Below, one piece after another: positions 50,410 to 62,969 of a DNA stretch of 64,000 bases (position 1 is the stretch's first letter; every line of letters begins with the position of its first letter). The notes under the pieces were generated by a model. It worked only from the letters and a program-made list of their open reading frames with translations. It made no database searches and was not told the DNA's origin. Position numbers and translations under genes: made by a program. The DNA is from an uncultured cyanobacterium (lineage in GTDB: Bacteria > Cyanobacteriota > Cyanobacteriia > Cyanobacteriales > CAWUOF01). Location: positions 1,088,001-1,152,000 of the forward strand of contig CAVUSO010000001.1 of NCBI GenBank assembly GCA_963744145.1, in the 5' to 3' direction.

Positions 50410-51459
50410 TTATTGAGGATGGTTTTCATCACTAGAGGATGAAATCAACTCTTTCCGACCCGGAAGAGATAGTTGGATTTTGTTTCTTTTATAAAGAAAA
50501 AATATTCCCCATCCTAGTAATAAAAATGGACTAAAAGCAAATAACCAAATACTTAACTCTACCAGACTATAGCTAATTTCAGTTATAGTTTTAGATGCTT
50601 TACCCCAGGTTTCTTGTATTCGTAAACCTAACGATGGACTAGATGGATTAGGAGGAGGTGAAGCAGGTATGGGTGATGAGAGAGTTAAATTAATGATCGA
50701 ATAAGCGACTTGAGTTTTCAAGCTTTTTTGTTGAGCATCAATACGTTCGATCGACTCGCGAATATTAGTTAATTCCTGAGATACTCGGAGAACCTCACTA
50801 ATAGAACCGGAACGCTCCATAATTTTTAAAGTCATTTCTTCTGCTTTGTGCAGATTTCGCAACCGAGCTTCATTATCAACTAACTGAGTAGAAACATCTT
50901 CAGCGGTGAGAGAACGATTTTCGATTGTACCTAATTGAATTAAGCTATTTAAAGTTGTGTCTAATCTTTCTTGAGGAACCTGAATTTTCATTGAGGTTCG
51001 ATGACGAACTGTTGGATCTAAAGGGTTACTATCTTGGAATCCTAAAATATCTCCTTGTTCTTGTCGAACAATAACCGAAATTGCCTTCATGCTATCATCA
51101 ATTGAAGTTACAATCAATGATAAATCTGCTATTTTAATTAATTGGGGGAGCGATGGTTTACCCTGAGCCTTGCCCTGAGCGAAGTCGAAGGGGGAGTCGA
51201 AGGGCTGTTCTTGGGCTGGTGCTGGGGCTGATTCCGGTAAATTAGCCGATTTGGCTGGTTTACCCATTGCGTCAGCAGATTTAGCCGCTGATTTAGCCAT
51301 TATGTCAGGTTTAGCGGCACTTGGAGCCATCATTTCTGAGCGATTAGCAGCACTACAACTTGACAAAGCGATCGCTGGTAAAATTCCCATCAGCAATACC
51401 AGGTGAAAACCTCTCGTCTGAGTTGGTTTGAGGAATTTAGTTTGATTTAATATTTTCAT
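50410..51459 (-). CDS. DUF4349 family lipoprotein
   Basis: Lipobox-like LSSC; QLIK.A.L, EDVS.Q.VD.EARL.NL, QVAYS.I.L, C-terminal TM. Confidence 0.88.
   Translation of the reverse strand: MKILNQTKFLKPTQTRGFHLVLLMGILPAIALSSCSAANRSEMMAPSAAKPDIMAKSAAKSADAMGKPAKSANLPESAPAPAQEQPFDSPFDFAQGKAQGKPSLPQLIKIADLSLIVTSIDDSMKAISVIVRQEQGDILGFQDSNPLDPTVRHRTSMKIQVPQERLDTTLNSLIQLGTIENRSLTAEDVSTQLVDNEARLRNLHKAEEMTLKIMERSGSISEVLRVSQELTNIRESIERIDAQQKSLKTQVAYSIINLTLSSPIPASPPPNPSSPSLGLRIQETWGKASKTITEISYSLVELSIWLFAFSPFLLLGWGIFFLYKRNKIQLSLPGRKELISSSSDENHPQ
51157..51204 (-). mobile_element. Two nested 24-nt small dispersed repeats, in frame within the DUF4349 gene
   Basis: cccttcgactcc[cccttcgacttcgctcagggcaag]gctcagggtaaa encodes PFDS-PFDFAQGK-AQGK. 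Confidence 0.85.
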
Positions 51460-51533: not shown

Positions 51534-51915
51534 GTCTGTGAGATCAGATGGGGTCGTTCATCAAGGTGATCTGTGAGCAGGGCGGGTTCATCAATACCTC
51601 GACTGCGCTCGGCACAAGGGTTATTTGTGTGTAACAAATTAATCGGTGAACCCGCCCCTACAGGTGATCAAAATGTTCGGATCTTGTATGATTTACCAAA
51701 AAAATCTGAAATTCAAGATTAAACTAGATCATAAAAATATATTGTCAATGAATTTATGATCACAATTAACCAGGATTTGTAGGGGCGGGTTCACCAATTA
51801 ATTCTGACACAAATAGATCAACATGATAAACCCGCCCAACCAACACAGATCAATCACAATTGACTTTAACTTTAACTGACCAATTTATCGGACAGGCAAG
51901 ATGCCTGTCCCACAA
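51534..51915 (+). repeat. Composite REP-doublet element, copy 1
   Basis: gggcgggttca...tgaacccgcccctac and gtaggggcgggttca...aaacccgcccaac; colinear with 62566-62969. Confidence 0.9.
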
Positions 51916-62496: not shown

Positions 62497-62565
62497 AGTT
62501 ACTCCATGTAAATAATCTCTCCTCCAATTAGTTCTACTCGTTCATCAACTCTTCTACGGTAAAGA

Positions 62566-62969
62566 GTCTGTGATGTAAGATGGGGTATGTCTCGACTACG
62601 CCTTGTGTTGAGCGTAGTCGAAACATCGACACAATGGTTCATCAAGGTGATCTGTGAGGCAGGGCGGGTTCATTAATACCTCGACTACCCTTCGACTACG
62701 CCCTTCGACTTCGCTCAGGGAACACTCAGGGCAAGCGCTCGGCACAAGAGTTATTTGTGTGTGGCAAATTCAGCTCCTGAACCCGCCCCTACGAGATCAT
62801 AAAAATGTATTGTCAATGAATTTATGATCACAATCAACCAGGATTTGTAGGGGCGGGTTCACCAGTTAATTCTGACACAAATAGATCAACATCATAAACC
62901 CGCCCAACCAACACAGATCAATCACAACTAACTTTAACTGATCGGACAGGCAAGATGCCTGTCCCACAA
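62566..62969 (+). repeat. Composite REP-doublet element, copy 2, with two 48-nt nested insertions
   Basis: Aligns with 51534-51915 apart from inserts at 62588-62635 and 62688-62735 and a roughly 60-bp segment present only in copy 1. Confidence 0.9.

Follow-up and report, generated by a model that had tools for sequence, protein, structure and literature searches.

Nested 24-nt hairpin units in a cyanobacterial genome and a candidate partner nuclease of the GIY-YIG family

Introduction

What are the two 48-nt inserts by which one copy of a dispersed repeat differs from another in the genome of an uncultured cyanobacterium, and what could have put them there? The two copies lie in a stretch of 64,000 nucleotides (nt), positions 1,088,001 to 1,152,000 of contig CAVUSO010000001.1 in assembly GCA_963744145.1 (Cyanobacteriales; CAWUOF01), hereafter the window; with the source genome denoted G000 and its contig C1, the window is G000:C1:1088001-1152000. 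An earlier note, made from the sequence alone, took each insert to be one 24-nt micro-element lodged inside another, and set the family beside the small dispersed repeats (SDRs) of Nostoc. Here we describe the 24-nt unit, its behaviour across the genome and its distribution beyond it, and a small GIY-YIG nuclease gene, outside the window, whose close homologues are regularly found among such units.

The comparison with SDRs is apt. Elhai et al. are said to have described in 2008, in the filamentous cyanobacterium Nostoc punctiforme and its relatives, repeats SDR1-8 of 21-27 nt that nest in each other and in larger repeats, and these have reportedly been regarded as the smallest mobile DNA. Nesting of units is in this sense a phenomenon already known; we know of no work since 2008 that names what moves SDRs. 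G000 adds an extreme, cleanly laddered case, together with a specific association of a gene with the units, tested within cyanobacteria.

Results

Two unit-within-unit inserts in one copy of a host repeat

Alignment of the two repeat copies leaves two 48-nt blocks that are present in copy 2 and missing from copy 1, each of them a unit within a unit; direct reading, alignment and automatic excision all bear out the inserts as first noted (Table 1). In block one (62588-62635) the outer unit, TGTCTCGACTACGC continued by TCGACACAAT, is interrupted after letter 14 by a complete unit that is, as had been claimed, inverted. Block two (62688-62735) is a unit, CCCTTCGACTACG continued by CTCAGGGCAAG, interrupted after letter 13 by CCCTTCGACTTCGCTCAGGGAACA, and it lies wholly within a third unit, TACCTCGACTA continued by CGCTCGGCACAAG, which is uninterrupted in copy 1. 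The three nesting levels proposed for this site therefore hold, block two supplying levels 2 and 3 inside the level-1 unit of copy 1. Exactly these five units are returned by automatic excision of 24 nt and rescanning (rounds 1-3), and matches to the core pattern with at most one mismatch number 5 in the window against 0.28 expected, a figure reached in none of 100 shuffles. The earlier note saw no evident target duplication; reading and alignment of both copies likewise reveal none at the window inserts, nor is there any in the unambiguous filled and empty pairs described below. The window observation is confirmed.

The host repeat belongs to a family resembling miniature inverted-repeat transposable elements (MITEs), with hundreds of matching pieces across the genome. 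For the window locus itself we sought comparison in other sources. In G306, the only genome of the same family, the flanking gene is 73% identical and the contig ends there; one public soil run contains 58% of the words, with contigs that end at 62607, and the sole 'skip' observed in it came from other copies of the host repeat.

The unit is a short hairpin with a conserved loop

Alignment of 303 exact cores gives the order of the unit: four letters, the conserved 12-nt loop TCGACTNCGCTC, four letters complementary to the first four, and a tail, TAAA, CAAG or AACA. A 4-bp stem, its loop and a 4-nt tail make 4+12+4+4 = 24 nt, the commonest form being CCCTTCGACTACGCTCAGGGTAAA. The length first given for the unit was thus correct, and the pattern written out for it, which sums to 23 letters, was not.

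Pairing at the four stem positions is kept in 138, 134, 117 and 118 of 141 distinct copies, where shuffles average 122, 81, 78 and 75 and none of 1000 matches the observed values. The stem covaries, C-G, G-C, T-A and A-T pairs all being present, and pairing does not extend to the next two positions outward (5 and 6). As free DNA the hairpin would be of marginal stability (-0.5 to -1.9 kcal/mol). Pairing kept up in so weak a hairpin is better explained by a protein that recognises it than by thermodynamics. Units with an exact core and at least three of the four stem pairs number 272 in the genome and 0 in the reversed genome.

Some cores resembled the 3' ends of tRNAs, and a tRNA origin was considered and rejected: none of the 403 units found in G000 (see below) overlaps any of its 63 tRNA genes, and ARAGORN, run at 20 loci from other phyla, found no tRNA except one unrelated tRNA-Ile. 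A search of Rfam gave chance-level matches only.

Units enter their own copies at preferred points

The genome (7.70 Mb, 39% G+C) is rich in HIP1, with 7811 copies of GCGATCGC, features that mark it as cyanobacterial. It contains 403 units in all, a total reached from 268 by peeling away inner units over 6 rounds. Of these, 141 are nested in another unit, up to a maximum of six levels, and 262 lie elsewhere; units make up 0.13% of the genome and yet take 141 of the 403 insertions. The idea of a sequence-targeted family survives as a strong preference, not as a rule. The earlier placing of the landings at the central CGC region can be corrected, the points being after position 11/12 for block two, 13/14 for the level-3 unit and 14 for the inverted unit. 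The preferred target lies in the loop of another unit, between positions 11 and 14; genome-wide, 104 nestings fall after unit positions 11-13, and 30 after position 2, which is equivalent to tandem spacing of 22 nt. The inner unit has the orientation of the outer in 136 nestings and is inverted in 5, block one of the window among them.

A fixed length, as opposed to the variable lengths of slippage, is borne out by excision: removal of 24 nt restores an exact core over the junction in 69 of 303 cases, removal of any alternative length in 1-33. The 23- and 27-nt classes consist of junctions of the kind produced by tandem copies, where one side holds just 1 or 10-11 core letters. The hairpin interior of the host repeat, measured at 55 loci, is a ladder: 32 nt at 27 loci, 33 nt at 1, 56 nt at 18, 80 nt at 4, 103-105 nt at 3, 149 nt at 1 and 200 nt, a composite, at 1. 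Between the empty and the filled state TTAA^GGTTATT acquires exactly 24 nt, with no duplication and without ambiguity, and at the identical point different host copies hold distinct innermost units, with tails GGGAACA and GGATAAA. Inner and outer sequences are unlike in 116 of the 141 nestings, which are therefore not local duplications. The loops of other hairpins hold units too, as do genes, in which the frame is kept; outside units, GGTT, GTTT or CGTT often follows the insertion point.

An empty orthologous site, of the kind the earlier note had looked to, is provided by a gene resembling those of REP-associated tyrosine transposases (RAYTs; REP, repetitive extragenic palindrome). An in-frame unit (GSTSLTTS) is present in this gene in G000 and in genome G168, that is in 2 of 16 species copies, and exactly eight codons are absent from the copies of the 14 other species. 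G168 bears the insert though closer homologues (73-78% identical) are without it, so that the site may have been hit twice, or the insert transferred.

Only 258 distinct combinations of unit and flank exist among the 403 units. Because identical flanks recur at many filled sites, independent events are fewer than copies; in many cases the unit was probably carried along when the host repeat was copied, and did not arrive by a hit of its own. Units lie on the plus strand in 223 cases and on the minus strand in 180, with no switch along the chromosome; GC skew gave no usable origin or terminus. Overall, the reading of fixed-length 24-nt units that enter their own copies is supported, and with it the notion of a micro-element family; its description as 'recently active' draws solely on the existence of identical copies.

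Units occur in many phyla and on mobile DNA

A census of 301 sampled genomes of the phylum used a strict 17-letter pattern, which misses units with other stems. G000, the sole member of its family in this sample, has 195 strict matches; the richest of the other 300 has 31, followed by 27, 25 and 17. At least one strict match is present in 52 of the 301 genomes, and the backwards control gave 0.

Beyond the phylum, one genome per species was scanned (596 Gb), which returned at least 123 loci with a pattern whose 16 specified letters would also match by chance. Among the matches listed, the three unspecified letters are CCC in 113 of 132, and since CCC completes the stem, these matches are taken as true units. 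The phyla among the matches listed include Acidobacteriota, Bacteroidota, Spirochaetota, Planctomycetota, Chloroflexota, Patescibacteria, Pseudomonadota and others, and the tail varies with lineage (CAGG, TGAC, CAAG and others). Repeats in an Acidobacteriaceae genome have the core of the unit, a 5-bp stem and nested inserts. The unit is contained in at least 125 metagenome stretches. Its exact 20-letter form is present in viral contigs, in at least 130 stretches (L300-L429), none of which has a small GIY-YIG gene within 1.5 kb of the unit. In a Sphingomonas strain there are up to 27 matching places per plasmid, obtained with a 48-nt query at E<=10; a plasmid search with a 72-nt nest gave no match at E<=0.01.

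A small GIY-YIG gene lies among units

The earlier note found no candidate enzyme in the window, and rightly so: the hits in the genome to GIY-YIG proteins, Y1 transposases, reverse transcriptases and IS110 recombinases all fall outside C1:1088001-1152000. One of them is a single-domain GIY-YIG gene at C1:140287-140634, whose product scores 59.6 bits with Pfam GIY-YIG and nothing over cut-off in NCBIfam; its nearest solved structures are the UPF0213 proteins 1ZG2 and 1YWL. A multi-level nest of units stops 17 nt ahead of its start codon, its 3' end contains a unit, and there are two further units within 300 nt. As a baseline, with 400 chromosomal units a random 300-nt site has a unit at most 49 nt away in 1% of cases, the median distance being 13.7 kb.

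The nest itself (C1:140140-140270; L249) contains about six left halves (tail, stem, GAG) against about three right halves, and is partly deleted or unevenly built. Nearby, about 35 nt of sequence occur twice (139950 and 140090).

Homologues at least 60% identical to the G000 protein occupy six loci in five other cyanobacteria among 80 genomes searched, and all six loci bear units, 2-11 each, or 37 units in 19.7 kb with a common core and varied stems. Within 350 nt of the gene lie 6 of the 7 strict units of genome G164 and 5 of the 17 of G098. Save for short upstream stretches in two pairs of loci, the neighbourhoods of the homologues are not shared, so the cassette is located in different places. 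A more distant homologue (39% identical), annotated as a GIY-YIG nuclease on a Sphingomonas plasmid, is flanked by the identical core on either side and contains it in its 3' end as well. At this locus (L430; S. parapaucimobilis plasmid NZ_CP155752.1, 294343-297363) the gene stands between nrdR and an RNA methyltransferase gene, and its reading frame terminates inside one of the flanking units.

Two further surveys bear on the association. When open reading frames (ORFs) at 120 unrelated metagenome sites were compared all against all, the GIY-YIG family was the only small recurrent neighbour adjacent to units, at 3 loci. Five complete unit-holding genomes, from five phyla, have 1-4 small GIY-YIG genes each, most of them bracketed by inverted hairpin repeats, some of which belong to other sequence families. 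These results show a specific link of the units to one nuclease clade. The earlier suggestion of co-occurrence with RAYT/IS200 nucleases, IS110 recombinases or reverse transcriptases was followed up and no link with flanking units was found. Reverse transcriptase and IS110 genes were rejected as partners: their nearest units are at least 417 nt away and part of host repeats.

Bracketing hairpin repeats of other families were recorded at L252, L255, L256, L257 and L258, all in other phyla, and several of them start GTCAT. In an Armatimonadota genome (L260; G302:C1:3483554-3486748) a small GIY-YIG gene sits within a duplicated tRNA gene, of which the upstream copy breaks off in the T-loop letters and a complete tRNA follows the gene. 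A metagenome contig (L143, 1500-2900) has two small GIY-YIG genes in the midst of tRNA-like 3' ends, and a unit at 2501-2524 splits one of these ends.

Further features of the window and its repeats

The window holds another nested pair of units, in frame within the minus-strand ORF 50410-51459 and encoding PFDS[PFDFAQGK]AQGK. This ORF specifies a protein of 349 residues, to whose low-complexity N-terminal part the pair adds 16; a literature search for unit-encoded peptide strings brought nothing relevant. The host repeat is modular: at about 55 loci with the hairpin arms given in Table 1 (e.g. C1:1260927 and C1:3825648) its halves are joined or separate, and one locus has five nested units with 3 nt lost at one level.

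Table 1. Units, pieces of units and host repeat copies in the window (window coordinates).
Feature	Position	Strand	Basis or remark
U1 (block one, outer), 5' piece, 14 nt; TGTC stem, core TCGACTACGC...	62588..62601	+	sequence reading, excision
U2, complete 24-nt unit TGTTTCGACTACGCTCAACACAAG (minus strand), inverted in U1	62602..62625	-	sequence reading, excision
U1, 3' piece, 10 nt	62626..62635	+	sequence reading, excision
Level-1 unit, 5' piece, 11 nt; TACC stem	62677..62687	+	intact in copy 1
Level-2 unit (CCCTTCGACTACG, CTCAGGGCAAG), 5' piece, 13 nt	62688..62700	+	
Level-3 unit, innermost, complete (CCCTTCGACTTCGCTCAGGGAACA)	62701..62724	+	
Level-2 unit, 3' piece, 11 nt	62725..62735	+	
Level-1 unit, 3' piece, 13 nt	62736..62748	+	
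Host repeat copy 2, MITE-like family	62560..62960 (about)	+	interior 105 nt; 32 nt when empty
Host repeat copy 2, hairpin arms GGGCGGGTTCA and TGAACCCGCCC	62662-62672 and 62778-62788		
Host repeat copy 1	51534..51915	+	interior 56 nt, one unit
Intact level-1 unit TACCTCGACTGCGCTCGGCACAAG	51595..51618	+	in copy 1; 'empty' for levels 2 and 3
Further nested pair, outer unit CCCTTCGACTCCGCTCAGGGTAAA	51157..51204	-	inner unit CCCTTCGACTTCGCTCAGGGCAAG at 51169-51192

Discussion

The window inserts are, we propose, copies of an SDR-type micro-element, a 24-nt hairpin linked to a GIY-YIG nuclease, and we give this picture as a whole a probability of roughly 0.55. That the candidate nuclease is itself what moves the units would be a step beyond it, a tentative suggestion that we place clearly below an even chance.

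GIY-YIG enzymes act by hydrolysis and form no covalent intermediate with DNA, so joining of a moved unit would require host functions. The route we envisage runs through single-stranded DNA. The nuclease would bind the hairpin on one strand and nick close by or in exposed loops; cuts in tandem copies would release single strands of unit length, nicks in loops would be the points of entry, and the released strand would be joined or copied in through host repair. Read on the reverse strand, the unit runs tail, stem, loop, stem, with its tail-side boundary four letters ahead of the stem; this boundary may be where the enzyme cuts, given the report that Ssn nucleases, discussed below, cleave a few letters ahead of their repeat. 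Units would outlast loss of the nuclease gene.

Several observations weigh against this proposal. The hydrolytic chemistry just mentioned is one. The gene and the units also part company in several genomes. G122 has 25 strict units and UvrC as its only GIY-YIG protein, and the G000 query found no homologue in G162, G166, G168, G067 or G080, which hold 7-12 units each; among the genomes searched, 8 of the 32 that have at least two strict units yielded a homologue at E<=1e-5, as did 5 of the 48 that have no strict unit, a weak association. The gene lies within 1.5-2.5 kb of the unit at 3 of 125 metagenome loci and at 0 of 130 viral loci. Where gene and units do adjoin, a gene once flanked would accumulate units, since units attract units. 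A site polymorphic for the filled and empty states was not seen, the public run having ended at 62607 without bridging. Finally, the motif published for SRM, the hairpin repeats that Ssn nucleases bind, matches none of the 403 units of G000 and none of 252 units at other loci, the 7 matches that G000 does contain lying on no unit; and in the table published with that work (Chenal et al., 2025, Nat Commun 16:2388; PMC11893778) Nostoc punctiforme, the SDR genome, is listed with no ssnA/cd10448 homologue.

The alternative that best survives keeps the units mobile and denies the nuclease the part of mover: it would bind and cut at them to some other end, for instance to modulate transformation or recombination, a role proposed in Neisseria, and their mover would be an unknown agent or a host process of replication or repair. 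The unit-bearing genomes without the gene, the table entry for N. punctiforme and the hydrolytic chemistry of the enzymes all fit this, as does the Ssn study, which in its available text demonstrates cutting and an effect on transformation and not transposition (PMC11893778). Two findings make us doubt it: no other protein family, tested or recovered, is associated with units, and the arrangement repeat-gene-repeat with the same core recurs from cyanobacteria to Sphingomonas in differing neighbourhoods, which speaks for gene and units moving and acting jointly.

Much less probable is a REP-like nature of the units, with a RAYT or an IS200-type transposase of the HUH (Y1) class moving them through single-strand cut and paste. 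This explanation was attractive for the RAYT-like gene described above (C1:6188691-6189446, minus strand; L250), in which the unit lies between the HuH motif and the Y motif, in-frame 'REP' insertions being, by the available text of PMC6006769, typical of RAYT subclass 2.4, common in cyanobacteria; and also for one IS200-type gene with units 117 and 486 nt away, and for the absence of target duplication and the strand specificity of the units, which are HUH-style behaviour. Yet among 16 loci of RAYT homologues in other cyanobacteria only one has a unit (1 unit in 54.8 kb), and that is the same insertion within the gene; of 32 genomes with at least two units 8 have a close RAYT homologue, and of 48 unit-free genomes 10 do; the five IS200 copies of identical sequence are each 6-31 kb away from any unit; and the foot of the unit hairpin is without GT[AG]G. 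We regard the RAYT/IS200 explanation as disfavoured. The last alternative, that units are immobile and that nests result from slippage in replication, from local duplication or from gene conversion between repeats, to which tandem copies at 22- and 24-nt spacing (26 and 13 cases), the excess of left halves in the nest upstream of the nuclease gene and the copying of units along with their host repeat lend something, is largely refuted, and retains hardly any of our belief, in view of the dissimilarity of inner and outer units, the identical unit sequence in unrelated contexts, genes and phyla, the length of exactly 24 nt and the precision of the empty sites.

How, then, does a nuclease-linked 24-nt unit compare with known systems? 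To SDRs, judged by their descriptions, it is close in being 24 nt long, in its many copies (403) in a HIP1-rich genome, in nesting in itself and in larger repeats and in its precise filled and empty sites. It differs in occurring in many phyla, SDRs being cited as absent outside Nostocaceae (Xu et al., 2018, in the available text), and SDR5 in particular, in the accounts available from citing papers, is a 21-nt element that inserts in HIP1 between the third and fourth letters, not a 24-nt unit. Chenal et al. (2025) report that single-domain GIY-YIG proteins of cd10448 bind NTS/SRM hairpin repeats as single strands, that the Ssn nucleases cut a few nt upstream of the repeat, and that the repeats flank the gene. 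What the unit shares with this system is a single-domain GIY-YIG gene of about 100 residues with a hairpin repeat on both sides that is also dispersed in the genome, an arrangement present in G000, at all six homologue loci and on the Sphingomonas plasmid. Strand-specific recognition may be a further common feature. The structures differ, the unit having a 4-bp stem around a conserved 12-nt loop where the NTS, by the consensus in the available text, has a short centre within a longer palindrome. The unit would therefore seem to work like an SRM while falling outside the published definition. The Ssn authors note a resemblance to insertion sequences and to REP/RAYT, with no insertion demonstrated in the text available; we encountered there no description of nesting or of filled and empty sites, the main text makes no mention of cyanobacteria, Nostoc or Elhai, and the table gives no SRM enrichment in Nostocales (PMC11893778). 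Conversely, papers discussing SDRs do not, in their available text, name GIY-YIG or Ssn proteins, and our literature search found no later work on the subject.

With the REP/BIME-RAYT system (REPtron) and the 'peel and paste' elements of IS200/IS605 the unit has in common short hairpins that flank a tied gene, a single-strand logic, the lack of target duplication and tolerance in frame. It differs from REPs in having no GT[AG]G 5' foot, GTAG appearing only in the reverse-strand loop when the free loop letter is A, and in that its loop is conserved and its stem free, the opposite of REPs; it has no RAYT/IS200 association, the lone unit at 16 RAYT loci being inside the gene, and its candidate enzyme is hydrolytic rather than HUH. 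MITEs it resembles in being non-autonomous, multi-copy and intergenic, the host of the window units being itself MITE-like, and differs from them in its 24-nt length, in the absence of terminal inverted repeats past the 4-bp stem and in the absence of target-site duplication.

A bolder extension of the proposal, which we think rather less likely than not, is that SDRs of the Elhai type at large are gene-less passengers of Ssn-type GIY-YIG cassettes, spread strand-specifically as single strands of unit length into exposed hairpin loops, with no target duplication, and moved between phyla. Such spreading would begin with a hydrolytic nick, and we know of no bacterial transposon for which this chemistry has been described. 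Were this so, the same 20 letters would be found from cyanobacteria to Acidobacteriota, Bacteroidota and phage contigs because the nuclease and unit had moved between phyla as a pair.

G000 makes the question of what moves SDRs testable, with rich and deep nesting, exact boundaries and insertion points, and one candidate gene that is intact and has close homologues surrounded, in every case, by the same units. Because they are 24 nt long the units stay in frame, and those in genes add loops of 8 residues to proteins, which is relevant to annotation. If the link with the nuclease is true, it would join the literatures on cyanobacterial SDRs and on Ssn nucleases and their hairpins, which in their available text do not cite each other, and the Ssn family would gain a role in the spreading of its own repeats.

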